Source: a virus (Duplodnaviria; Caudoviricetes). Taken from it: a DNA stretch of 64,000 nt. A program made the translations under genes and the position numbers. The stretch lies in the IMG/VR virus record IMGVR_UViG_3300036713_000599. The stretch is one strand, 5' to 3'. The first letter of the stretch is position 1, and the number at the start of each line of letters is the position of its first letter. Of this stretch, positions 1,565-62,696 are shown one piece after another. A model generated the notes under the pieces. The model was not told the origin of the DNA. It saw only the letters and a list, made by a program, of their open reading frames with translations, and did not search any database.

Positions 1565-2768
1565 TCATGAGTAGTTAGTGAGAACTTACCCAAACTTTTC
1601 TGTTTCTGTTTTAGTTTGAGGTTAACCGGTGTAAACCTAAGACAATGAGGTTGATTCGATCCACCAAAGTCTCCTTGAAAGAGACAAATCCAAGGAAGTT
1701 GAAAATCCTGGAAGAAGTATTCCAGGAATACGGTCGGATTGTAAACCTCTTCATCGAACTATTCTGGGAAAATCCCGTCAAAAAGTCAAAGCTTCTAAAG
1801 CCAATCGTCGACTCGGTTCTCCCTACTTGGCTTTCCGCTCGGCTTCGAAAGGTTGCCGCCCGGGAAGCCCTTGATGTGATCAAGGCAGCCAAGGAATCAG
1901 CAAAATCCCTTGGGAGAACTCCGAAAAAGCCAACTCACAGAGGGAGTCGAATGTGCCTTTCTAGTACCATCGCTTCCCTTGACTTGGCTGGAAAAGCCAC
2001 ATCCTATGATCGCTGGCTCCACCTTCATTCCATCGGGCATCATCCCGAATTTGGAAGAGTTATCCTAGATCTCCCGATCAAATTACACAAGCATTACAAT
2101 GAGTTAGCTTCTATTGGAAGACGACAAGAATCCTACATTCTAACCTCCCGTTACGTTCAGCTCAGCTTCGAAATCGTCACCGAGGAAAAGCTCCCTTCTG
2201 ACCGATGTATCGGAATCGATAGTGGAATCAAGGCTTTAGCTTCGACTTCTACTCGACATCAATTCGGGAAAGACATAGAAAAAGGGATTGAGCGGATAAA
2301 ACGTTGTAAACACGGTTCAAAGGGGCAAAAGAGGGCTAGAAGGGCTCTTCGCCAGAGGATGAATGAGGTGGTGAAGGAACTCTTTGGCACCTTAAATCCC
2401 ACTTTGATCGTGGTCGAAAAGCTTCGTTCCTTGAATAAAAGGACAAGAGTCAAACGCCGCTTGACTCGAAATATGCGGCGCTCTATCGGTAGCTGGACCT
2501 ATCGTTATTGGTTGGAAAGACTAGAAAGAGAGTGTGAAATGAGACGTTCTCGTTTTCGCTCGGTCAATCCATACAAAACTAGTCAACGATGTTCAGTCTG
2601 TGGTCATATCGATAGGAGAAATCGGCGAGGAGAGGTATTCAAATGTCAGAGTTGTGGTCACACTGACAATGCGGACACTAACGCCGCTTTGAATATCTTG
2701 GATCGATTTCTTACCGGACCTTACGGTGCCGGTTGCAAACCTTTAACCTTGGTTGGAGCTACATGAGT
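1565..2768 (+). mobile_element. non-autonomous TnpB-only insertion element (IS607-like or IS200/IS605-like)
   Basis: GT dinucleotide on both sides (1563-1564, 2767-2768); terminal TCATG/CATGA inverted pentamers; removal restores an ORF; no tnpA in the element or the window. Confidence 0.7.
1645..2766 (+). CDS. tnpB: TnpB RNA-guided RuvC endonuclease
   Basis: 373 aa; RuvC-I GIDSG, RuvC-II VVEKL, zinc finger CSVC..CQSC, RuvC-III NADTNAALNI. Confidence 0.92.
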   Translation: MRLIRSTKVSLKETNPRKLKILEEVFQEYGRIVNLFIELFWENPVKKSKLLKPIVDSVLPTWLSARLRKVAAREALDVIKAAKESAKSLGRTPKKPTHRGSRMCLSSTIASLDLAGKATSYDRWLHLHSIGHHPEFGRVILDLPIKLHKHYNELASIGRRQESYILTSRYVQLSFEIVTEEKLPSDRCIGIDSGIKALASTSTRHQFGKDIEKGIERIKRCKHGSKGQKRARRALRQRMNEVVKELFGTLNPTLIVVEKLRSLNKRTRVKRRLTRNMRRSIGSWTYRYWLERLERECEMRRSRFRSVNPYKTSQRCSVCGHIDRRNRRGEVFKCQSCGHTDNADTNAALNILDRFLTGPYGAGCKPLTLVGAT

Positions 2769-3102: not shown

Positions 3103-3720
3103 TCAATGAGGATGTAAGGCTAGGAGTTTTCTTTCGAGTTCTCTATTTTGGCTCTCCCTGGTAACCTTCATGGCACTGTCCCAGGTAGCGTACCAGGCAG
3201 CATCCCTGGCGGCGGTCCAGGCAGCCTCCTTGGCAGCACACCAGGCAGCCTCCCAGGCATCGTACCAGGCAGCATTCCTGGCAGCCTCCTGGGCAGCCTC
3301 TAGTTCTTCATTAGTGGCCTTCCCATCGATCCACAACTTTTTGATCTCGATGGCCCTCAAACTTTTCGGGTCAGGGTTCCCGGCCTTTCTCAACGCTTCT
3401 TCAGCACACCAAATAGCAAATTCATGGAGAACCCTTGAAGCATCTTTGACCCAAAGAACTCTCCTCCTGGAACACACCAGTTTATCGTCACCGTGGATCA
3501 TATCGCCGCTACATTCAACCCTACAAACCACAGGCCCTGGGGCATATTTAAGGGCATCAAGAGGTGTTATGCTTGCATGAAGTCCTTTTTCGCAAAGCTT
3601 CAAAGGGCCTCGATGTCTCAAGATCTGTCCTTTGTGGACCTTGAGGGGTCTTTTCATTGAATCCGTGAGGATTGTGGAATCATCACGGATGAAGTGCCAC
3701 GCTTGGATCGGACTTGTCAT
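3103..3720 (-). CDS. phage protein with Ala/Trp tetrapeptide repeats, paralog 1
   Basis: Start moved to ATG 3720 (MTSPIQAWHF) by homology to the adjacent paralog; C-terminal AAW/AAR repeats. Confidence 0.8.
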   Translation of the reverse strand: MTSPIQAWHFIRDDSTILTDSMKRPLKVHKGQILRHRGPLKLCEKGLHASITPLDALKYAPGPVVCRVECSGDMIHGDDKLVCSRRRVLWVKDASRVLHEFAIWCAEEALRKAGNPDPKSLRAIEIKKLWIDGKATNEELEAAQEAARNAAWYDAWEAAWCAAKEAAWTAARDAAWYATWDSAMKVTRESQNRELERKLLALHPH

Positions 3721-3775: not shown

Positions 3776-4453
3776 TCAATGAGGTTGTAGAGCCAAGAGG
3801 CTTCTCTCAAGTTCTTCGTTTTGACTTTCCCTAGTAGCCGCGTTCCTGGCAGCACCCCAGATAACGTGCCTGGCCGCGTCCCAGGCCGCGTTCCTGGCAG
3901 CGTACCTGGCGTCGTCCCAGGCCGCGTTCCTGGCAGCGTACCTGGCGGCCTCTTTGGTAGCGTTCCAGGCCGCGTTCTCGGGAGGTTGCCTGGCAACCTC
4001 ACTGGCCGCGTTCCAGGCAGCCTCCCAGGCAGCCTTTAACTCTTCATCAGTGGCTTTCCCATTGAGCCACAACTTTTTAACCTCGACAGCCTTTAGGCTT
4101 CTTGGGTCAGGGTTTCTGACCTTTCCCAATGCTTCTTCAGCACACCAGATCGCAAATTCATGGAGAACCCGTGAAGCATCGACCATCCAAAGAACCTTCC
4201 TCCTGGAACAGACCAGTTTGCCGTCACCATGGATCACACCGCCGCTACACTCGACCCTGCAAGCCACAGACCCTGGAGCATATTCGAGGGCATCAAGAGG
4301 CCTCACACTTGCATGAAGTCCTTTTTTGCAAAGCTTCAGAGGGCCTCGATGCCTCAATGTTTGCCCTTGGTGGACCTTGAGGGGTCTTTTCATTGAATCC
4401 GTGAGAATTGTGGAATCATCACGGATGAAGTGCCAGGCTTGGATCGGTTTCAT
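3776..4453 (-). CDS. phage protein with Ala/Trp tetrapeptide repeats, paralog 2
   Basis: MKPIQAWHFIRDDST...CKKGLHAS...DALEYAPG; 12-nt tandem units at about 3840-4030. Confidence 0.8.
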   Translation of the reverse strand: MKPIQAWHFIRDDSTILTDSMKRPLKVHQGQTLRHRGPLKLCKKGLHASVRPLDALEYAPGSVACRVECSGGVIHGDGKLVCSRRKVLWMVDASRVLHEFAIWCAEEALGKVRNPDPRSLKAVEVKKLWLNGKATDEELKAAWEAAWNAASEVARQPPENAAWNATKEAARYAARNAAWDDARYAARNAAWDAARHVIWGAARNAATRESQNEELERSLLALQPH

Positions 4454-4725: not shown

Positions 4726-5034
4726 CTACATATCGAATTCATCAAAGGCACAAGAGCCACAGTAGCCTCCCATTGCCCGATGGTGGGGAGCATTCACGAG
4801 CGGTCCACCACATCCACGACAGCGACCAGAAAAACTCGGCTCGTGACGACGAGAAGCCACCGAAACCCCCTTCTCCGCCAGGCATGTCCCGTCTTTTCCC
4901 GTCCAAAGAACTCTCCCTACCGTAAGGGTGAGGGTCTGACCACTCTTTTTGGTCACTGTGACTGTGTCACCCTCTGCCAAATTCTTCCCTCTGAGGCCCC
5001 AGCCACCGTTTCGTAGTTTCGTAAACGTTGTCAT
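4726..5034 (-). CDS. hypothetical protein with C-terminal CxxC..CxxC
   Basis: ATG 5034 is 5 nt after class I motif 5040-5068; CRGC and CGSC. Confidence 0.7.
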   Translation of the reverse strand: MTTFTKLRNGGWGLRGKNLAEGDTVTVTKKSGQTLTLTVGRVLWTGKDGTCLAEKGVSVASRRHEPSFSGRCRGCGGPLVNAPHHRAMGGYCGSCAFDEFDM

Positions 5035-8109: not shown

Positions 8110-8289
8110 CCCGATTTTTCAAAATTTGGTATGGTGGAAATTTTTGGGCAAAAAACACCCCTCGCCTCACCCTACCCTTGAGGTGCCGTTGCCATTTGGA
8201 GCACCCGCCCTGCCCGTCTTCGCCTTGCCTCTCCCGATTTTTCAAAATTTGGTATGGTGGAAATTTTTGGGCAAAAAACACCCCTCGCC
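8110..8289. repeat. perfect 57-bp AT-rich direct repeat (8110-8166 and 8233-8289)
   Basis: cccgatttttcaaaatttggtatggtggaaatttttgggcaaaaaacacccctcgcc twice; partial third copy near 8041-8065. Confidence 0.9.
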
Positions 8290-8392
8290 CTGCCCTCGCC
8301 ACCACCTTACCATCGCCTTGCCATTGGGGTGCCATTTGGAGCCTTCTCCCTACCGGTCCTTGCCGTGTCCTCCCTATCCTTTTGTCTCCTCG

Positions 8393-9074
8393 GTCTCCTC
8401 GTAAGGAGCCATCATTGAGTTTTCCGGCTCCCGTGGGTGTGGCGGCCAGGCCACCTACCTTGCCTGTCTCCTCGTAAGGAGCCATCATTGAGTCTTCCGG
8501 CTAAAACCGATAGTGTATGTCAACGCTCACTCTCACGTCTCCTCGTAAGGAGCCATCATTGAGTCTTCCTGCGCGTATCCTTCGGCCAGGACCATGCCTA
8601 GCCAGAGAGTCTCCTCGTAAGGAGCCATCATTGAGTCTTCCAGCACTTATGCCCCGCCCATAGCATGCGAAACGGTCTCCTCGTAAGGAGCCATCATTGA
8701 GTCTTCCAGCCCGTAGAGCAACACCGAGTTGACCGACATGTAGTCCGGTCTCCTCGTAAGGAGCCATCATTGAGTCTTCCGGCTCCATTCGAGCCAGTCC
8801 AGTTCGTCTCTTATTCGTTCGTCTCCTCGTAAGAAGCCATCATTGTCTTCCAGCTGCGGTTCCTCTCGGTAACCAAACCCCTTGTCCACTGGTCTCCTCG
8901 TAAGGAGCCATCATTGAGTCTTCCAGCCGACGGCGAACACGTTCCTCCGCCTCAACACTTCGGGAGTCTCCTCGTAAGGAGCCATCATTGAGTCTTCCAG
9001 CGTACAAAAAGATGGTTTGAAGTAAGCAAGATTTGCAAGTCTCCTCGTAAGGAGCCATCATTGAGTCTTCCAGC
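8393..9074 (-). CRISPR. CRISPR array, 10 repeats of 36 nt and 9 spacers (30-38 nt), CasPhi-type repeat
   Basis: Repeats start at 8393, 8466, 8537, 8609, 8675, 8748, 8821 (34 nt), 8892, 8966, 9039. Minus-strand consensus GCTGGAAGACTCAATGATGGCTCCTTACGAGGAGAC with 3' hairpin CTCCT-TACG-AGGAG and terminal GAC. Confidence 0.98.
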
Positions 9075-9090
9075 TGGCCTCGGAATAAGT

Positions 9091-11400
9091 TCATGTTCCT
9101 GTAGGCTTATACACCGGATTGCGAACGGTCTCGTCATCTTTCTCAAAAAAGGCTATAATATCCTCAACTTCTTGGGTAGTCGGGGGCACATTAACTGTCT
9201 CTTTCCCCTTATTTTTCCCTTTGATTTGTTTTTTGCGAGTGGTTCCCGTCTTTTTCTGGCCACTGGGTTTCTTGCTATCAGGGTTTGTGATGCCTTTGCC
9301 TAGGACGGCTACGAGAGCGAGGTTCCACGTAGCCACTTCGCTGTCTGCGTGGAACAGTGCTTCACATTTGAGGCATTTGAAATGGTCGCCGTTACGGTTA
9401 CTCTTGTGGATGAAGCCGCACGCGGGGCATCTTTGGCTTGTCCAGTAGGGTGCTAGCCCGAGGACGTATTTTCCCTTGTCGTGTGCTCGATTTTGTATAG
9501 CCTTTTTCAGGGTATCGATCACCCATCGATTTTCAAATTTTTGCCGAAAGAACCCCTGCCAAGTTTCTTGGAACTTACCTTTCCCTCTCTTCGGGGGTAG
9601 GCTTAGATCCTCAATACCTACGACCACTGTATCGCACAGAGTGAGTCTTTTGGCTTCTTTTTCGATCCAGTTGGCGATTTCCCTACACAGTTGGTTGACG
9701 CGTTTGGCTAATTTGGGGAATTTCTCGTGTCCTGTGTATATCTCCCATTTAGCTTTTTCGAAGGCTTTTCGAGCATCTTCGGGCATTTTCGGTCGTATTT
9801 CTGGCAGGCGAGATATACTAGCATCGGTCCTTTTGGTGGGCTTGCGAGGTTTTTTGCTTTTACTGTCCTTCTTGAGAGGGCGAGTGAAGAAGACTTTGGA
9901 GGGGTCGCCGCCGCGTTCTAGGTATAGGTTGGCGATGTAGTGTGTGTTAGAGGTCATATCATCCCAGGGCAGGTCTGGGTCGTGTGTCCCGAAGAAGTGC
10001 TTTAGGACGAGGTTTTTCGCCTTTTCTGGGGTGAGTGCTTCGTATTGCTGTACTTGTTCTTGGTGTTCTGGGCAGAGGGAGGTGAATGCTTCGTCCCTGA
10101 CCTCTTGCCGGAAGGCGTCATAGGCGTCTCGATACCTTTTGAGTTCGTTGAGGTAGCGGTCTGGCAGCAAGCGACGGCTTACGGGTTGGATGTCTTTTTC
10201 TGAGAGTTCCTCTTTTCTGGACAGGCGAGAGATCATAATTGCCGCGGGGTTTCGTTGTCCGAGGTCGACGGTGACGAGAGCGATCGTGTTATTCTCGCTT
10301 GTCAGGGACGTCAGGAGTGTCCTTGTCTCTCCTTTGGTGTAAATTTTGCGTGCGTGCAGGGCGCCTTCGGACCTGAGCTTGTAGCAGAAGGTGAATTCGC
10401 CGGTCCTGGTGTTGAGGACGGGGCATCCGGTGAAGGTATCGAGGAGGTCTTTGGCGGAGATTTGGCCTGGGGTGGCGGCTTCCCTCATGTACACGCTGCG
10501 TAGGAGGCCTCTCATATCGAACAGGACCCAGTCCTTGCCAATTTGGAGGACGGCTAGGATAGAGGCCAGGGCTTTAGTCTTTGGAGGGGTGCGGCGATAG
10601 AGCCGTACCCTTCCTTTCTTTTTGAGATTTTTCCTTTGGTGTTCGGGAACGTACCCTGGTTGACCTTTAGGGATATCGAGGCGACTAGGGCCTTTTTCGA
10701 TAATGTCGTCGGGTTTACGTGAGTAGCCTTCGTATTGCTTTGGCAGGATAACGTCACCGGGGTTATCTGGATCGAACACGAAGGGGGTTACCGCCTGGTA
10801 GCCATAGATATTGGGGTTGATGCCAGGGGGTTGGGCTAGGAGGCCATTTTCGTTGAAGGCCGAGTCTGGTTTGAATTCTAGGATTTCAAGACCTTCTTCG
10901 ATCTTCAGTTGGTTCTTTTTTGACAGTTTTTTCAGTCTCTTTTTGTTCCTGTTCTCGACCTTTTTGATCACCCCGCTATACCTGGAGAACGCGTGGCTCA
11001 GGATGGTGTTGAGACCTTGGGCGCCGATCCCTTGATCTGAGATATTATTGGTTTTGAACCAGAAGTCGCGAGACTTGGAGCTTATGTCTCCACTGAAGAG
11101 GGCTTCCTTGGAGGCATTGAACTCTTCTTCTGTGTAGGCGAAGACGCGTTCTTGGACGGCTTGGGATACTTGGTATATGGGCCATTGGTCGAAGGGTCTA
11201 CTTTGTGCGACGATGGTTGTCTTGGCGGGGGGCTTGAAGTTTGGGGGGTCCTCTTCGTCTTTGCCCATGAGGAAGTCGATGGCGGCTTCTTCGCCATCTT
11301 TCTCGTAGATTTTCCCCGCCTTCGTCAGGACGTCTTTCCCAAAACAGAGTCCTTCGAAGTGCTCTTCTCTGATCCTTCGGATGTTGTTCGGTTTTTTCAT
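9091..11400 (-). CDS. cas12j: type V CRISPR effector Cas12j (CasPhi), 769 aa
   Basis: RuvC-I VTVDLGQRN, RuvC-II VVGIEDL, CPAC..CLKC zinc finger, RuvC-III HADSEVATWNL; CasPhi-like blocks FKPPAKT, SRPFDQWPIY, QGLNTI, PPGINPNIYGYQ, KGQPGYVPEHQR, ENRW; stop 16 nt from the first repeat; start moved to ATG 11400. Confidence 0.95.
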   Translation of the reverse strand: MKKPNNIRRIREEHFEGLCFGKDVLTKAGKIYEKDGEEAAIDFLMGKDEEDPPNFKPPAKTTIVAQSRPFDQWPIYQVSQAVQERVFAYTEEEFNASKEALFSGDISSKSRDFWFKTNNISDQGIGAQGLNTILSHAFSRYSGVIKKVENRNKKRLKKLSKKNQLKIEEGLEILEFKPDSAFNENGLLAQPPGINPNIYGYQAVTPFVFDPDNPGDVILPKQYEGYSRKPDDIIEKGPSRLDIPKGQPGYVPEHQRKNLKKKGRVRLYRRTPPKTKALASILAVLQIGKDWVLFDMRGLLRSVYMREAATPGQISAKDLLDTFTGCPVLNTRTGEFTFCYKLRSEGALHARKIYTKGETRTLLTSLTSENNTIALVTVDLGQRNPAAIMISRLSRKEELSEKDIQPVSRRLLPDRYLNELKRYRDAYDAFRQEVRDEAFTSLCPEHQEQVQQYEALTPEKAKNLVLKHFFGTHDPDLPWDDMTSNTHYIANLYLERGGDPSKVFFTRPLKKDSKSKKPRKPTKRTDASISRLPEIRPKMPEDARKAFEKAKWEIYTGHEKFPKLAKRVNQLCREIANWIEKEAKRLTLCDTVVVGIEDLSLPPKRGKGKFQETWQGFFRQKFENRWVIDTLKKAIQNRAHDKGKYVLGLAPYWTSQRCPACGFIHKSNRNGDHFKCLKCEALFHADSEVATWNLALVAVLGKGITNPDSKKPSGQKKTGTTRKKQIKGKNKGKETVNVPPTTQEVEDIIAFFEKDDETVRNPVYKPTGT

Positions 11401-11410
11401 GTCAGGGTTG

Positions 11411-11427
11411 TACACCGAAGGGGGCGA
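11411..11427 (-). promoter_or_regulatory. class II promoter-like motif (C-rich)-GGTGTA-N10-ATG in front of cas12j (representative of 15 or more copies)
   Basis: Minus strand cgcccccttcGGTGTAcaaccctgacATG. Confidence 0.7.
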
Positions 11428-40381: not shown

Positions 40382-41947
40382 GTGGAACAACTTAACACCA
40401 TTATCTGTGGCATCACCCTCGAAGTACTAAAAACCCTCCCCGACAATTCTGTCGACGCTGTTGTGACCGACCCCCCTTATGGTCTCGGCCAAAGGAAGAT
40501 TTCGTCGGAACAGCTCGTTGGGTTCCTGCAGGGAGATGGTCTTGACACAGGGGGAGACTTTATGGGGGCTAAATGGGAGATTCCTTCTGTCCTCGTGTGG
40601 AAAGAAGTGTACCGAGTTTTGAAGCCCGGTGGTCACGTTTTGTCGTTTGGGGGAACGCGGACAATAGATCTCATTAGCTTGGGTCTTCGGGCAGCTGGTT
40701 TTGAATTTCGCGATTCGATTTTGAACATGTACGCTTGGTGTTATGGGTCAGGTATGCCAAAATCTGAGAACATTTCCAAGCGGATAGACAAAAGAGCGGG
40801 TGCTAAAAGGGAGGTTGTCGGTAAGAGCCCTTACGCGGCCCGTGCAAATAAGCACCCAAGAGCTATGTCTCCAGGCGACCTTCCCAGGAAGGTTGAAGAC
40901 ACGAGGGAGATCACAGCTCCTGCGACTCCCGAGGCTAAGCTTCACGAGGGTAAGGGTACGGGACTCAAGCCTTCTTTCGAGCCCGTCGTGCTTTTCCGCA
41001 AACCCTGTGAAGGCACCACTACGGACAATGTCTTGAAGTATGGGACAGGTGCTCTCAATATTGATGCGTGTCGAGTTAAGCATTCAAACAAGAAGGATTT
41101 TGAGAACCACAAGTCCCAGGTCGACGCGGTCAGAGCCAAGGGCGGAGTGCGGGACGGATCTTGGAAGAATGCTTCGGACCTTTCTGGGGCTAGTGAGGTG
41201 ACTTCGGCCGGTCGGTGGCCGCCGAACATGACGCTGACGCACCATCTAGATTGTCGGAAGGTTGGGAGTAGGAAGGTGGACGCTCCCGTCATTAATCGGT
41301 TTGATGACGGAGCCAAGCCTTTTGGTGGTGGGGCCGGCCACCAGTACACCTCGACGCAGACGGGTGATGCCGACGGGAAAGAAGACATCATTGTCTGGGA
41401 TTGCGTTGAGGGGTGCCCAGTCAGAGAACTGGATGAACAAAGTGGTGTACTGACTTCTGGTACAGGCGCTGTGAAGAAGGCTTCTGCGAGAGGGGGGAAA
41501 CGTCAAGGGGTTGTTTATGGGAAAGAGACTCGACCAGAAAACACGCCGAATATTGAGTATGTGGGTTCTGGTGGAGCTTCTCGCTTCTACGGCCAGTTCC
41601 AGGACTCCGGGGCACCCTTCCGGTACGTCACCAAACCTTCGGCCAAAGAGTACACCCTCAACGGGCAGATCGAGAATACGCATCCGACCAAAAAACCAAT
41701 AGATTTAATGCGTTGGCTCGTTAGGCTCGTATGTACCAAGGGAGGCACGGTTCTTGATCCTTATTGCGGGTCAGGGTCAACTCTTCACGCAGCCTGCGAG
41801 GAGGGCATGAACTACATCGGTATCGACAAGAACGAGACTGCTTGCAAGATTTCTCGTGATCGGATGAACATTGTCTCAGGTAGGGAGGAGGCACGTCGTG
41901 ACCAAATGGATGTTTTTGACCTTATGATGGGGCTAGACGATGAGTAA
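40382..41947 (+). CDS. beta-class N6-adenine/N4-cytosine DNA methyltransferase
   Basis: VVTDPPYG precedes HPTKKP and VLDPYCGSGST; GTG 10 nt after GGTGTA. Confidence 0.93.
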   Translation: MEQLNTIICGITLEVLKTLPDNSVDAVVTDPPYGLGQRKISSEQLVGFLQGDGLDTGGDFMGAKWEIPSVLVWKEVYRVLKPGGHVLSFGGTRTIDLISLGLRAAGFEFRDSILNMYAWCYGSGMPKSENISKRIDKRAGAKREVVGKSPYAARANKHPRAMSPGDLPRKVEDTREITAPATPEAKLHEGKGTGLKPSFEPVVLFRKPCEGTTTDNVLKYGTGALNIDACRVKHSNKKDFENHKSQVDAVRAKGGVRDGSWKNASDLSGASEVTSAGRWPPNMTLTHHLDCRKVGSRKVDAPVINRFDDGAKPFGGGAGHQYTSTQTGDADGKEDIIVWDCVEGCPVRELDEQSGVLTSGTGAVKKASARGGKRQGVVYGKETRPENTPNIEYVGSGGASRFYGQFQDSGAPFRYVTKPSAKEYTLNGQIENTHPTKKPIDLMRWLVRLVCTKGGTVLDPYCGSGSTLHAACEEGMNYIGIDKNETACKISRDRMNIVSGREEARRDQMDVFDLMMGLDDE

Positions 41948-49829: not shown

Positions 49830-50270
49830 CTAGGAGGGTGTGTAGGGAGGGGGCGTGCTTCTGTGGGGTAGTAAGGTGAACTGTAGCCACAGGTAGTGGA
49901 GTTTTCGGGCTAACCTCAACAGCTTCGGGAAACCTACAGGTTTTCGCACGAAGGCGTTGCATCTGCACTCATATGCTTTCTGTACGTCCTGAGGGTGTTT
50001 GGAATTGGTCAGGATGACAACAGGTATCAGGTTGATGTCGGGGTCGGCGTCTTGTCGGATCTCTTTGAGTACTTCAAGTCCACCTACCTTGGGCATATTT
50101 AGATCAAGTAGGACCAGTTTTGGTTTTTTGGGCATCCCTCTCAGAGTTTTAAGCGCAGCTTCCCCGTCCGTTGCAATCGTTATTGACGGCATGTGTGTAC
50201 AGGCATCCCTGAAAGCTTCTGTGAGAAGCTCGGCATCGGTCGCATTATCCTCAACCAGGAGTATGTCCAT
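49830..50270 (-). CDS. single-domain response regulator (Rcp1-like)
   Basis: ILLVEDNATD, LVLLDLNMPKVGGLEVL, PVVILTNS, NAFVRKPV. Confidence 0.95.
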   Translation of the reverse strand: MDILLVEDNATDAELLTEAFRDACTHMPSITIATDGEAALKTLRGMPKKPKLVLLDLNMPKVGGLEVLKEIRQDADPDINLIPVVILTNSKHPQDVQKAYECRCNAFVRKPVGFPKLLRLARKLHYLWLQFTLLPHRSTPPPYTPS

Positions 50271-51348
50271 TTTCGACCCTAGGTAGTGTGAAATGGAATT
50301 TTGTACCTACCCCTGGTTTCGACCAAGGCCAGATTTTACCTCCGTGTTGCTCTATAACGCGGCGCGCGATGGCGAGACCGATCCCTGTGCCAGGGTACTG
50401 TTCGATCGTATACAGGCGTTGAAAGACACCGAAGATCTTGTTTTTGTGTTGCATGTCAAAACCGATCCCGTTATCGCTTACAGTAATCTTCCACAAAAAC
50501 GGGCCGTACGGTTCCACTTCTATTTTGATGTGAGGCGGTTCGTTTTTCCGTCGGTACTTGATCGCGTTCGAAAATAGATTCTGAATAACTTGGGCGACCA
50601 TACTACGGTCACCATGGATGAGAGGCATGTCGCCCGCTACTTCGATGCGTGCCTTAGATGTGTCTATTTTTCTGACTAGTGACCGTTTTGCTTCCTCAAT
50701 GGCAGCCCCTAACGGGAAAGGCTCGAAGGGTCTTTCTTGGCCTGCCTTCGAAAAGGCCAGAAGATCGTCTAGCTTTTTTTCCATCTGTTGTGAAACGGTC
50801 ACGATCCGGTCTAGAAAATGACACCCTCGTTCGTCTAGGGCGGACTGGTACCTTTTTTGTAGAAGGGTCGCGAATCCTGCAATCCCGGTGAGAGGCTCAC
50901 GGAGGTCGTGTGACACCAGAGACGTGAACTGAGTGAGAGCCTGGTTGACCTCTTGGAGCTTGTGTTGGTGTTCGACGGACTCTGAGATGTCTCTGGTAAT
51001 TACGACGGCAGTATTGTTCGAAGATTTTCCCATATGGGCTTGAAAGTGCTCCAAAGTACCGTTCTTTTTAGGCACAGAGTAAGACAGTATCGCACTCTCT
51101 CCTGTTTCAATGACTTTGCGGACAGCTTCTGTGATCTTGTTCGCGACGTCTTCAGGTAACAGGTCTCTGACATTTTCGCCTATGGGTTTGTTGGTGGAGG
51201 TGAACAGGTACCGCCCTTCTGCGTCGATTTCCGACACAGGATCAGGAAGGGCTTTCATGATACCGTGCAACCTGCCTAGAACTCTCCCTCTCGGGCACTG
51301 GTGTTCGTTCTCACACCTTGGTGGAGTATTTGGGATTATTTGTGTCAT
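50251..51348 (-). CDS. soluble PAS-histidine kinase
   Basis: PAS-like ALPDPVSEIDAEGRYL...VVITRDISE; H-box VSHDLREPL; N-box QNLFSNAIKY; DNGIGF; IFGVFQRL; GTGIGLAI. Confidence 0.95.
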   Translation of the reverse strand: MTQIIPNTPPRCENEHQCPRGRVLGRLHGIMKALPDPVSEIDAEGRYLFTSTNKPIGENVRDLLPEDVANKITEAVRKVIETGESAILSYSVPKKNGTLEHFQAHMGKSSNNTAVVITRDISESVEHQHKLQEVNQALTQFTSLVSHDLREPLTGIAGFATLLQKRYQSALDERGCHFLDRIVTVSQQMEKKLDDLLAFSKAGQERPFEPFPLGAAIEEAKRSLVRKIDTSKARIEVAGDMPLIHGDRSMVAQVIQNLFSNAIKYRRKNEPPHIKIEVEPYGPFLWKITVSDNGIGFDMQHKNKIFGVFQRLYTIEQYPGTGIGLAIARRVIEQHGGKIWPWSKPGVGTKFHFTLPRVENGHTPG

Positions 51349-53088: not shown

Positions 53089-55202
<2,114 letters not shown>

Positions 55203-58760: not shown

Positions 58761-61700
58761 ATGGAGATTGTCAAAACGCGTCAACTGTCTCAGGTCCGAC
58801 TCAGCGAGAATTTTCTCGCCCCTTATCGCCAGAAGGGGGATGTCTTCGAAACGTTGTTGGCAAGGTCAACGTATTTGACCAAGTACTCCAGAGATAAGGA
58901 GGGGCCGTTATCGCACGAGTGTTGGACAGATACAATCAAACGAGTCGTGGAAGGAAATGTTAATCTCGCCCCTGGTGTGAGCGTGGAGGAGGCTCAGTTA
59001 CTATTTCACTTATTCTGGACAGGACAGGCTATGCCTCCAGGCCGTGGCCTGTGGACGGGAGGGGTCGAAGGTATCCCTGCGGACGCTCGTTATAATTGCT
59101 GGTTCACAACTCTGCGGGACATTGATGACTGGTGTTGGACGGCTAACCAGCTTATGCTTGGAGGTGGTGTAGGTGTCGGCCTAACTGAGATCGATTCTCT
59201 GCCGACGGTTTCAGAGGGAAATGCTCGTTTCGCAGTATGGTGTCGGGACAACCACCCCAATCTCGGAGAAGTGGACCCTAACGGTCCTGAGTTCCTTAAT
59301 GGCCAGACTCCTGTATTTAAGTGCGAGGATTCCCGTGAAGGGTGGGTCGCATCTTTTCGGAATGTCTTGGACTCAGCTTTCCGCGGCCAGGACTTGATTG
59401 TCGACGTGTCCGAGGTTCGGCCCAGGGGTGAGCCGATTAAGACATTCGGCGGAACCGCCTGTGGTCCGGGCCCTCTTGTACATCTCCTTCGCTCTTCTTG
59501 GGATTATATCCGGCAGGCGAGAGGCCGCCGATTGTCGTCGGTAGAGGCCCTTGATATCACGAACCACGTTGGTTTGTGCATTAAGGCAGGAAATGTCCGT
59601 CGTTGTCTACCTGGGAACACTTTGGTACACACAGAGACAGGCCTTGTGCCTATTAGGGACGTCAAAGTAGGAGACAAGGTAGCTACTTCTGGGACTAGGA
59701 GTGAGCGTTACATGCCTGTGACAGCCCACATGGATCAGGGGAGGCAGCGGTTGGTGGAGATCGAGAACCAGATGGGTATTTTTCGGTGCACGGGTAACCA
59801 CCTAGTTGCTGTGATGACTGGCATCGGCACGTACGAGTTTAAAAAGGCTTCCGAACTGAAGCCTGGGTCGAGGATGGCTTTTGTTAACCATGACATCCCA
59901 GGAGATGTCACCGAACTCCCGTCTTGGGGGTATGACTGTTCTGAAGATTCAACCGCCTGTGCCGACATCTCGGTTCCAGAATTAACTTCAGAGGTTGCTT
60001 GGTTCTTGGGGTATTTTCTTGGGGGCGGTTACGTTAGAGCTGACCATAAAGAGAACGGGTTCAATGCTGAAGTGGTTATGGCTGTGGCTAACGACGTTGA
60101 TGCTGCGGCCATTGTGGATCGACTGGATTCTGTGTTCTCTGCTTTTGGTGTGAGCACTAGTAAGACTCATCCGAGTAGCTGTGATGACAGCTGGGAGGTT
60201 CGAGCCACGTCCAAACAGTTGGCTCGGTACTTCTGCGAGAACTTCAAACAACCGGAGACAGCCACTAAGGTGCCTGAATGCGTTCTTCGTGGCACTCTTA
60301 GAGTTCGGGCAGCATTTCTCGCGGGTGTCTTGGATTCAGGTGGTCACAACAATAAGCCTGTGGTTTTGTGTGCGTCTGTGTACCCCACTTTCTTGGAGGA
60401 GCTACAGTCTGTTTATGCCAGTATTGGAATCCCTACCAGGCTTAAGTTGAACCGTCCCGAAAAAGACACTTGGCAGCCGATGTGCCATTTAAGCCTCGTG
60501 GGGACAGAGGCCGTGAGCTTCTTCGGGGAAAAAGTCCAGTCTTTTGTTTTTCGTTCGAACAGCAAACAGGCGACAACCCACTTGTTTAGTAGGCTCGGAG
60601 GGGACACAAAGGGACTTTGTCCTATCGAGGTCCTAGAGGTTCGTGATTCTGAGATTTTTTCCGACACTTATGATATTGAGGTTGCCGGAGCTGAGGAGTT
60701 CGTGGCATCCGGTTTGCTCGTACACAATTCCGCTCTCATTACGTTAGGTCATATTTCTGACCAAGAATTCCGTGATGCGAAGAAGGACTCTGCTGCCGTG
60801 ATGAGCCATCGTCACACAAGCAACAACTCTGTAGCTTTCCAGGACTGGGATCAGCTTAATAATTTTGACTGGCGTGGGTTGGTGGCTGATAACATTGATT
60901 TCGGTGAACCAGGGATCTTGAATTTACCCCTTGGTCGTCAGACAGATCCTGGCGTAAAGGGTGTGAATCCGTGTTTCAGTGGGGACACTCGCATTGCTGT
61001 AGCTGATGGCCGTGATTCTGTTACCATCCAAGAACTCGCTGAGGCAGGGGTTGACGTTCCTGTTTATTCTGTGAGTCGCCAGACAGGCAAAGTGGAGATC
61101 AAGATGGGTCGCCATCCTCGCATTACTGGTTTTGGTAAGGAGTTGTTGCGTGTCTGGTTGGACGACGGTGGTTACTTGGACACCACACCTGACCATAGTT
61201 TCCTGCGGCTCGACGGCTCAAAGGTTAGTGCGTGTGACCTGGTACCTGGAGACAGCCTTCCCAGGTTCACTGCCACGGGAGAACATGTCCATTGTGATAC
61301 CCGGGATCCCTCTGTAGAGGCGACACCCAAGAGCCAACTAGTCGTCCCAGTTCTTCAAGAAGACAACGATTCTGCTTCGGTGACTAAAAAGTGTGAGGTG
61401 TGCGGGACCCTGTTCGAGACTCTCCGTGGGTTTAGGGAGAGATCTTTTTGTTCTGATACGTGTGTGAGCGCATACTCTAATCACGAAGACCGGCTCTCTG
61501 CTCCTAAGATCGAATCAGAGCAGGCACGTGTTTGTTCTGGTCTTATGTTTGAGTTAGGTCGAGACCCCAGCCATATCGAATGGTCTCATGCCTGTGCGGT
61601 CGAGGGTGTGGCTTACCACCTAGGCCTGGCTTCCAGTTTCCGACATTTTAGGGAGGTCCTTTCTGCAGGGGCTGCCTACAACCACCGTGTTGTAAAGGTG

Positions 61701-62696
61701 GAGAAACTTCCCGGAGAGCATACGGTCTACAATATAACGGTGGACGACCACCACACCGTGGCTGTGATCACTGAAAGTGCTCTTAAAAAGGACGGGGTTC
61801 ACCACACTGGAGTTTACGTAGCACAGTGTGGTGAACAACTTTTGCATGACCGTGAGGCGTGTAACTTGGCAGAAGTTTTCCCTGCCAAGTTTGGGGCGGG
61901 GACCGACCCTATCACTGTATTCCGGCTTGTGACTCGTTATTGTCTGAGGCAGCGCCTTACTCCACTTTCCGACGAGAGGAGTCATGCTGTAGGTAAACGT
62001 AATATGCGTGTGGGCGTGGGCCTTGGAGGTATTTGCGACTTTGAGTGGACCCCTGAGCTTCTCGCCAGGTGGTTCGGTGCATGTCGTCGTGAAGCTGATT
62101 CGTATGCTGAGGAGCTTGGTGTGAGCAAGCCCATAACAGTGACGACAGTTAAGCCTAGTGGTACCATTTCTTTGGTTAACAGTTCCAGTCCTGGTGTACA
62201 TGCTTCGCACTCTCCTTACTACATCCGTCGCGTTCGGATTGCGAAGAATGATCCAATGTCGGCTGCGATGGCAGAGGCTGGCGTAACCTTCGAAGAGGAC
62301 TTGTGCGACGAGACCCACAACACCTGGGTGTACTCCTTCCCCATGAAGGCGGACAATCCGAAGGTCACTAAGGAAAGTGAGACACTTCGTGATCAATTTG
62401 AGCGCCAGGCGACCATCCAGGAGTGGTGGGCAGACAACGCGGTGTCGAGTACCATAAACTTCGATGCTGAGACCGAAAGGGAGGAGCTTGCAGCATGTTT
62501 CGAGGAGTTCGTCCCTCGCCTTAAGTCTACTGCGGTACTTCCTAAAGGTCATGGGTACGTCCAGGCCCCATACGAAGCTATTGACGAGGCGACGTACAAG
62601 GAGATGGCTCGCGGCATCAATCACGACAGTAAACTTGTGGGCGGTGGGGATATCGAGGTGGAAGAATGTGAGGGAGGCGTGTGCCCAATACGCTGA
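58761..62696 (+). CDS. nrdJ: class II (B12-dependent) ribonucleotide reductase with two inteins
   Basis: MPPGRGLW, YNCW, GGGVG, GNVRR|SALI, NP|CGEQ, EACNLAE, VKPSGTISL, DNAVSSTINF, QAPYEAID. Confidence 0.95.
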   Translation: MEIVKTRQLSQVRLSENFLAPYRQKGDVFETLLARSTYLTKYSRDKEGPLSHECWTDTIKRVVEGNVNLAPGVSVEEAQLLFHLFWTGQAMPPGRGLWTGGVEGIPADARYNCWFTTLRDIDDWCWTANQLMLGGGVGVGLTEIDSLPTVSEGNARFAVWCRDNHPNLGEVDPNGPEFLNGQTPVFKCEDSREGWVASFRNVLDSAFRGQDLIVDVSEVRPRGEPIKTFGGTACGPGPLVHLLRSSWDYIRQARGRRLSSVEALDITNHVGLCIKAGNVRRCLPGNTLVHTETGLVPIRDVKVGDKVATSGTRSERYMPVTAHMDQGRQRLVEIENQMGIFRCTGNHLVAVMTGIGTYEFKKASELKPGSRMAFVNHDIPGDVTELPSWGYDCSEDSTACADISVPELTSEVAWFLGYFLGGGYVRADHKENGFNAEVVMAVANDVDAAAIVDRLDSVFSAFGVSTSKTHPSSCDDSWEVRATSKQLARYFCENFKQPETATKVPECVLRGTLRVRAAFLAGVLDSGGHNNKPVVLCASVYPTFLEELQSVYASIGIPTRLKLNRPEKDTWQPMCHLSLVGTEAVSFFGEKVQSFVFRSNSKQATTHLFSRLGGDTKGLCPIEVLEVRDSEIFSDTYDIEVAGAEEFVASGLLVHNSALITLGHISDQEFRDAKKDSAAVMSHRHTSNNSVAFQDWDQLNNFDWRGLVADNIDFGEPGILNLPLGRQTDPGVKGVNPCFSGDTRIAVADGRDSVTIQELAEAGVDVPVYSVSRQTGKVEIKMGRHPRITGFGKELLRVWLDDGGYLDTTPDHSFLRLDGSKVSACDLVPGDSLPRFTATGEHVHCDTRDPSVEATPKSQLVVPVLQEDNDSASVTKKCEVCGTLFETLRGFRERSFCSDTCVSAYSNHEDRLSAPKIESEQARVCSGLMFELGRDPSHIEWSHACAVEGVAYHLGLASSFRHFREVLSAGAAYNHRVVKVEKLPGEHTVYNITVDDHHTVAVITESALKKDGVHHTGVYVAQCGEQLLHDREACNLAEVFPAKFGAGTDPITVFRLVTRYCLRQRLTPLSDERSHAVGKRNMRVGVGLGGICDFEWTPELLARWFGACRREADSYAEELGVSKPITVTTVKPSGTISLVNSSSPGVHASHSPYYIRRVRIAKNDPMSAAMAEAGVTFEEDLCDETHNTWVYSFPMKADNPKVTKESETLRDQFERQATIQEWWADNAVSSTINFDAETEREELAACFEEFVPRLKSTAVLPKGHGYVQAPYEAIDEATYKEMARGINHDSKLVGGGDIEVEECEGGVCPIR
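59604..60728 (+). other. intein 1 (375 aa) with degenerate LAGLIDADG endonuclease
   Basis: Starts CLPGNTLV, ends LLVHN before Ser; motifs LGYFLGGG and LAGVLDSGG. Confidence 0.9.
60972..61826 (+). other. intein 2 (285 aa) ending in Gln, at the NP|CGE catalytic motif
   Basis: Starts CFSGDTRI, block B TTPDH, block F VYNITVDDHH, ends VYVAQ before Cys. Confidence 0.88.

Follow-up and report, generated by a model that had tools for sequence, protein, structure and literature searches.

The locus described here lies in a 64,000-nucleotide stretch of viral DNA (the window), which corresponds to bases 8097-72096 of one 240,951-bp IMG/VR virus record, IMGVR_UViG_3300036713_000599. We conclude, with a probability of about 0.93, that the locus is a complete and functional type V-J CRISPR-Cas12j (CasPhi) system of a tailed huge phage, and that its nuclease is the published Cas12j-13. 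Both parts of the locus occupy the minus strand, the open reading frame (ORF) first and the array after it, with 16 nt between the stop codon (9091) and the first repeat (9074). The original prediction for this DNA had described a 769-amino-acid effector with three acidic residues and a zinc site, ten repeats situated 16 nt from the gene, a hairpin at the 3’ end of the repeat ending in GAC, and no cas1, cas2, cas4 or anti-repeat, and had assigned the whole to type V-J. Its coordinates, counts and gap were all correct, the residues and the hairpin were borne out by the comparisons below, and the sequence, the predicted fold, the repeat structure, the absence of adaptation genes and the huge-phage context agree on the type V-J assignment.

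The cas12j ORF extends from 11415 to 9091 on the minus strand, which gives 774 amino acids from a GTG codon and 769 from the ATG at 11400. We set the start at the ATG because the hexamer GGTGTA, followed by ten further nucleotides, precedes it. A database entry (P0001) is the same 769-residue protein, with 100% identity, and the closest other protein in that large database is 69% identical. The close database relatives are all 700-830 amino acids long, and a length of 769 fits the Cas12j size of 700-800. In an alignment of 29 homologs, the RuvC residues D379, E597 and D686 and the zinc-ribbon cysteines C658, C661, C676 and C679 were invariant. A phmmer search against the PDB returned nearly full-length matches to Cas12j-SF05 (8.5e-143), CasPhi-2 (5.3e-137) and CasPhi-3 (2.9e-130), and the next matches, to Cas12f and TnpB, were at about 1e-6 and limited to the 60-75 residues of the zinc ribbon. 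The AlphaFold2 model of Cas12j-13, made with the 29 homologs, had a predicted local distance difference test (pLDDT) score of 83. With this model the top 15 Foldseek matches were all Cas12j (E-values 1e-56 to 1e-39, 32-37% identity, template modelling (TM) scores up to 0.69/0.79), followed after a large gap by Cas12f at 1e-8 with a TM score of about 0.3. The model has the Cas12j fold, in which an N-terminal half predicted to interact with the protospacer-adjacent motif (PAM) and the RNA handle is followed by a C-terminal RuvC domain interrupted by a stop domain that has an insertion. Disorder is predicted for residues 709-769, with pLDDT values under 50 from 709 onward. By sequence and by predicted fold, the 769-amino-acid protein is unambiguously a Cas12j.

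One could suppose instead that the gene is an ordinary TnpB, or belongs to another type V subtype, and merely sits beside an unrelated array. Pfam detects nothing in the protein other than a Cas12f1-like zinc-ribbon TNB domain, as such a gene might show, and a true TnpB gene is located 6 kb away (window 1645-2766). However, the full-length matches to Cas12j are at E-values near 1e-140, compared to 1e-6 for Cas12f/TnpB; the neighbouring TnpB has only a 57-residue zinc ribbon in common with Cas12j; the repeat type and the leader described below co-occur with the gene in 12 loci; and the protein is reported to work with this very repeat (10.1101/2025.09.16.676532). The supposition is refuted by the phmmer and Foldseek results and by the identity with the Cas12j-13 entry in the supplement of that preprint, and we leave it next to no probability.

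The preprint (bioRxiv 10.1101/2025.09.16.676532), which dates from 2025, describes a search of IMG/VR v4.1 for proteins of 700-800 amino acids that match a Cas12j hidden Markov model and lie within 1 kb of an array, and names eight orthologues Cas12j-11 to Cas12j-18. Its supplementary entry for Cas12j-13 begins with MKKPNNIRRIREEHF, the N-terminus of the window protein, and six further peptides of that protein, among them those of the three catalytic segments and of the C-terminus, occur in the entry verbatim. The contig stated there as the source of Cas12j-13 is IMGVR_UViG_3300036713_000599, and the 36-nt repeat given for it equals the window repeat letter for letter. Whether the ortholog is new had been left open in the original prediction; the proposed comparison with known Cas12j orthologs gave Cas12j by phmmer, and the supplement identifies the protein as the known Cas12j-13. 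The repeats in the supplement also identify three of the loci used below for comparison, L009 as Cas12j-11, L010 as Cas12j-14 and L011 as Cas12j-16.

Much of the biochemistry of the nuclease is reported in the same preprint (10.1101/2025.09.16.676532). All eight orthologues cleave double-stranded DNA in vitro beside a TTG PAM, purified Cas12j-13 doing so with the 36-nt repeat, and Cas12j-13 is active with CRISPR RNA (crRNA) alone. In HEK293T cells, Cas12j-13 yielded 2% insertions and deletions at a target with a TTC PAM and about 18% as a fusion to T5 exonuclease, and it was the best adenine base editor of the eight. A 26-nt “mature” repeat is listed in addition to the 36-nt form, and the two handles are compared. 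Strong editing in human cells is reported to need a TAC trinucleotide at the start of the spacer. Of the nine natural spacers in the window, none starts with TAC. The protein and its repeat are already known and tested, and the nuclease itself is not new.

Cas12j-13 and the window protein are the same molecule, with 769 amino acids and the same 36-nt repeat, and nothing differs between them; the preprint is focused on editing tools, and in its text as available to us the native spacers and what they target, the leader and the phage are left undescribed. Among solved structures the best match is Cas12j-SF05, also called Cas005 or ‘Cas12-1’ (PDB 8iew, 8wrp and others; E-value 8.5e-143, residues 15-739 aligned), which has the domain order, the RuvC triad and the zinc ribbon in common with the window protein. 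Cas12j-SF05 is nonetheless a different ortholog, with about 32-37% identity in the structural alignment and a different C-terminal tail. CasPhi-2 (Cas12j-2; PDB 7lys, 7lyt and 7m5o) and CasPhi-3 (Cas12j-3; PDB 7odf) are full-length homologs with Foldseek E-values of 1e-56 and 7e-53, respectively; they have about 750 amino acids, use crRNA only, recognize a T-rich PAM and are about 35% identical to the window protein, whose C-terminal tail overlaps the array leader, a feature that sets it apart from them. TnpB and Cas12f have the RuvC fold and the zinc-ribbon TNB domain in common with the window protein (TM score about 0.3), but they are half its size, act as dimers or depend on omegaRNA or trans-activating crRNA (tracrRNA), and are without the N-terminal domains that interact with the PAM and the RNA handle.

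The repeat consensus of the array, in the crRNA sense, is GCTGGAAGACTCAATGATGGCTCCTTACGAGGAGAC. Nine of the ten repeats are 36 nt long; the exception, R4 (34 nt), lacks 2 nt at the 5’ edge of the mature handle, and its C>U change preserves a G.U pair. Point changes gather in R5 and R8-R10, at the gene-distal end. The 3’ end of the repeat forms a 5-bp hairpin (CUCCU/AGGAG) with the loop UACG, followed by AC, so that the terminus reads GAC. The folding energy of this hairpin is unremarkable for its composition (z -0.19), and its support therefore comes from covariation. Across eight Cas12j repeats, all 40 of 40 cells pair (100%) and three of the five pairs change on both sides, a score that was matched by none of 500 shuffles and by no slide.

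To characterize the signals around the gene, we ranked hexamers genome-wide by their frequency within 30 nt upstream of the first ATG of long ORFs. GGTGTA was the top-ranked gene-start hexamer (26 of 138 occurrences) and outranked Shine-Dalgarno-like words. Its distance to the ATG was exactly 10 nt in 17 of the 26 cases and 9-11 nt in 21; it was often preceded by CCCTCCTTT, and no Shine-Dalgarno sequence was found between the hexamer and the ATG. One possibility for the GGTGTA-N10-ATG arrangement is a phage-specific promoter that produces leaderless mRNAs; another is a translation signal. A second GGTGTA (9115-9110) is present in the final codons of cas12j, inside a block that is conserved ahead of the array.

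This block was recognized in twelve Cas12j loci, whose 80-nt sequences upstream of the first repeat were stacked without alignment. In every one of the twelve, the motif CTCG(C/A)AA occupies exactly positions -51 to -45 relative to the first repeat (with T at -51 in the window), where it is embedded in a conserved block of about 24 nt, aCCnCTCGcAAtCCGgtnTAtAAcC; the leader core TCGCAATCCGG occurs once in the 241 kb of the contig. The block is non-coding in six loci (L010-L015) and overlaps the stop codon in L016. It is coding in the other five (the window, L004, L007, L008 and L009), where it specifies the peptide R(N/D)PVY(K/N)P in the tail of the nuclease. Because the block is non-coding in six loci, the conservation lies in the DNA or RNA and not in the protein. 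The block would be the promoter of the array, an adaptation signal, or both. On the minus strand, a scan for sigma-70 promoters and terminators yielded no convincing candidate either at the leader or past the array. We put forward tentatively, at somewhat less than even odds, that it is a family-wide Cas12j leader that acts as a promoter and/or as the docking signal of an integrase supplied in trans, and that the array is live in nature; the matches of the two newest spacers to co-occurring DNA fit a live array. We found no description of the element in the literature searched, which is weak evidence of novelty. A proposed pairing of the leader block with the GAUUGC segment of the repeat was dropped, as the repeats of the window, L004 and L007 (GAUGGC) break the pairing with no compensating change.

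Repeat-like elements also occur singly in related Cas12j phages. Solo or half repeats were observed in which the hairpin is preserved through compensatory or wobble changes, and most of them are located about 10-70 nt from the start of a downstream protein gene, cas12j itself included. Such elements could serve Cas12j as sites of binding or processing within mRNAs; alternatively, they could be solitary repeat units. A solo repeat upstream of cas12j was not found in the phage of the window, though it is present in relatives. In three Cas12j loci the conserved leader is followed by a single repeat with no second directly after it (‘one-guide arrays’).

The targets of the spacers were sought by comparing the contigs of three sediment-metagenome runs, from two studies, with the locus, whose DNA was found in all three. 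In runs X2 and X3, the leader-proximal spacer S1 matched, over exactly its full extent, a stretch in the interior of a 10,271-bp contig. Its protospacer has the 5’ flank ...AAGCA in the crRNA sense, which is not T-rich. The second spacer, S2, matched two variants of a target, and the 5’ flank of its protospacer, GTTC, contains a TTC PAM, as did the target that Cas12j-13 edited in human cells; its two mismatches, at positions 1 and 38, would form an rU.dG and an rG.dT wobble, respectively. Because the flanks are unrelated to the repeat, we take the S1 and S2 matches to be protospacers and not fragments of an array. The S2 target variants are separated by two changes within one open frame, one synonymous and the other conservative, so the target lies in a protein-coding gene. 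Searches with 24-nt prefixes of S1-S5 and S9 gave no match in IMG/VR; S7 and S8 had no match in JGI metagenome contigs, nor S6 and S9 in GTDB genomes. By blastn, the whole array had only chance matches in GenBank phages (E-value 0.7) and none in PLSDB plasmids. The original prediction had supposed that the nuclease is aimed at competing elements or host genes: this is borne out in part, as S1 and S2 do match other contigs of the same samples. For the PAM, which it had proposed to infer from spacer matches, a T-rich 5’ sequence (TTN or TBN) is expected of a Cas12j; the natural protospacers have TTC beside S2 but GCA beside S1, and the other spacers were matchless where searched.

The same matches could be read as self-regulation or control of the host and not as action against competitors, with the protospacers in the unsequenced half of the phage genome or in the host chromosome, and with targeting either non-lethal (owing to a missing PAM or a wobble in the seed) or aimed at host genes. 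The sequencing depths of the target contigs were within about 10% of that of the phage contig in two runs (word depths of 19.6 compared to 21.5 in X2 and 30.3 compared to 32.9 in X3), which would suit this reading, although a single depth figure per contig is weak evidence. It would also account for the S1 protospacer without a T-rich flank and for the difference at guide position 1 in the S2 protospacer, and spacers directed at host genes are on record for huge phages (PMC7162821). Yet no spacer matches the available 241 kb except at the array itself, and neither this phage nor any of four related Cas12j phage records contains a homolog of the translated target fragments. The nuclease is, moreover, catalytically intact and is reported to cleave DNA (10.1101/2025.09.16.676532). 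Self-regulation or host control is in our view an unlikely explanation of the array, and we favour action of the system on co-occurring genetic elements.

The array of the closest relative provided a view of its history. This locus (L004), from a crustacean-associated metagenome, encodes the 69% identical protein and has four repeats; the 3’ half of the repeat and the 11-nt trailer are as in the window, and all of the spacers are different. Neither locus has an integrase gene nearby. The degenerate repeats at the far end, the trailer shared with L004 and the leader on the gene side together argue that spacers enter at the gene-proximal end. The comparison indicates that the spacers have turned over since the phages of the window and L004 diverged. 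It bears on a further possibility, that the locus is a frozen relic in which an intact nuclease accompanies an array that has stopped gaining spacers and lacks current targets. A relic would agree with the deletion in R4, with the absence of adaptation genes from the 241 kb, with the failure of the spacers, each tried in some of the collections, to match IMG/VR, JGI or GTDB sequences, and with the lack of significant GenBank phage or PLSDB plasmid matches for the whole array. It is hard to reconcile with two leader-adjacent spacers that match co-occurring DNA exactly at the spacer boundaries, with the spacer turnover between two arrays that end in the same trailer, and with a full handle in nine of the ten repeats, and we regard it as very improbable.

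The carrier of this type V-J system is a huge tailed phage from sediment. A PHROG scan detected a large terminase, a portal, a head protease and a tail fibre on the cas12j contig; the terminase was not found in the phage with Pfam PF03237, although the PHROG scan did detect it. Its identity is 59-64% with the terminases of two further phages that carry Cas12j (529 kb and 323 kb) and 40-47% with the terminase of a third (363 kb). CheckV places the completeness of the contig at about 50%. Within this roughly half-complete genome, Pfam found no Cas1, Cas2 or Cas4, which it did find in control genomes, and there was no further copy of the CRISPR repeat and no anti-repeat of at least 13 nt; the window had no match in an Rfam or a tRNA scan. 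The genes neighbouring cas12j have no Pfam or PHROG match. A conserved accessory gene beside cas12j was considered and rejected, since the window, L004, L007 and L008 have unrelated genes upstream.

We propose the following mechanism. cas12j would be expressed from the phage’s own GGTGTA-N10-ATG start signal, and the array would be transcribed away from the gene, from the conserved leader embedded in the last 20 or so codons of cas12j. By analogy with Cas12j-1 and Cas12j-2, in which RuvC additionally carries out processing of precursor crRNA (pre-crRNA) (PMC8298400), the RuvC site of Cas12j-13 may cut the pre-crRNA upstream of the hairpin, and the mature crRNA would keep a handle of about 26 nt and the spacer. 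During infection, the Cas12j-crRNA complex would cleave TTN-flanked DNA of co-occurring genetic elements. New spacers would be added gene-proximally; because the contig is without Cas1 and Cas2, the integrase would presumably act in trans or come from the unsequenced half of the genome.

Several points weigh against our reading of the locus. Matches were recovered for only two of the nine spacers. The perfect match, that of S1, is without a T-rich flank and may not be cleavable. The similar depths mean that the target contigs could belong to the unsequenced half of the same genome, though depth is weak evidence either way. The absence of adaptation genes is not proven on a contig that is about 50% complete.

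Table 1. Coordinates of the cas12j-array locus in the window and of repeat elements in related Cas12j loci (the latter in the coordinates of each locus).
Feature	Position	Strand	Remarks
cas12j (Cas12j-13), 769 aa	9091..11400	-	RuvC D379/E597/D686; CxxC...CxxC zinc ribbon 658-679
GGTGTA hexamer	11411..11416	-	exactly 10 nt before the cas12j ATG
Leader block ACCgTTCGCAATCCGGTGTATAAGCC	9103..9128	-	-54 to -29 from the first repeat; encodes RNPVYKP within the last cas12j codons
Gap from stop codon to first repeat	9075..9090	-	16 nt
CRISPR array, R1-R10 and S1-S9	8393..9074	-	ten direct repeats, spacers 30-38 nt
R1-R5	9074-9039, 9001-8966, 8927-8892, 8854-8821, 8783-8748	-	R4 (8854-8821) is 34 nt
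R6-R10	8710-8675, 8644-8609, 8572-8537, 8501-8466, 8428-8393	-	
S1, 37 nt, leader-proximal	9002..9038	-	37/37 match in a 10,271-bp contig
S2, 38 nt	8928..8965	-	36/38 match in a 5,967-bp contig (X2) and a 1,355-bp variant (X3)
Trailer CGAGGAGACAA	8382..8392	-	directly past the last repeat; identical 11 nt in L004 8581-8591
Solo/half repeats	L004 5956-5991, 8756-8791; L007 ~4958-4978; L011 3674-3912		
Solo/half repeats, L016	hairpin ends near 99 and 1081; also 5149, 5242, 5310		
One-guide arrays	L014 ~4417-4452; L015 ~4224-4259; L016 ~4333-4368		

Other features of the phage were recorded alongside the locus. The window also encodes a ribonucleotide reductase, a GroEL-type chaperonin (53535-55202), a PAS histidine kinase (50251-51348), an N6/N4 DNA methylase that is split or bears an insert (40382-41947), an exonuclease and an NAD ligase. 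The ribonucleotide reductase gene (58761-62696, plus strand) contains an intein with a LAGLIDADG domain. The terminase, of 1056 amino acids (genome C1 96882-100052), carries about 435 inserted residues (84-519) that two related phages lack in their terminases; this insertion is probably another intein. The phage has a pair of TnpB-like (IS605 OrfB) genes, the first encoding 373 amino acids and the second lying within a 374-amino-acid open frame; one is the plus-strand gene 6 kb from cas12j mentioned above, and the other is located at the far end of the contig (genome C1 ~239.6-240.7 kb).

Several repeated sequences were found outside the array. Just past the array trailer is a 123-nt tandem duplication (window 8110-8296) with two 64-nt copies that are 95% identical, which occurs nowhere else in the genome; in two runs, the depth of a 3,764-bp contig adjoining it is about double that of the cas12j contig. 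A family of repeats of about 145 nt, 81-93% identical and in at least seven copies, is present at window 4308-4447 and at genome C1 4849-7593 and 11668-11807. Five of its copies lie about 570-685 nt apart upstream of the window, and their spacing suggests small gene cassettes arranged in tandem. Within long ORFs on both strands, at window 3179-3300 and 3840-4033, there are imperfect tandem repeats whose period is 12/24/36 nt and whose unit is CCAGGCAGC-like.

The nuclease is in the literature as an editing tool, and its rediscovery adds nothing. What goes beyond the preprint (10.1101/2025.09.16.676532), as far as its available portions extend, are the co-occurring protospacers, the family-wide leader overprinted on the tail of the nuclease and the GGTGTA-N10-ATG start motif. 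A leader conserved in both sequence and distance bears on how the arrays of these phages are transcribed and on how spacers are gained with no integrase gene found in the phage. That the disordered tail is apparently conserved only through the underlying leader DNA is a caution against reading the conservation of a C-terminal motif as protein function, and the tail could be trimmed in engineered versions of the nuclease. From the natural protospacers, which occur in the same sediment, one could learn what a Cas12j phage fights and which PAM the system uses in vivo.

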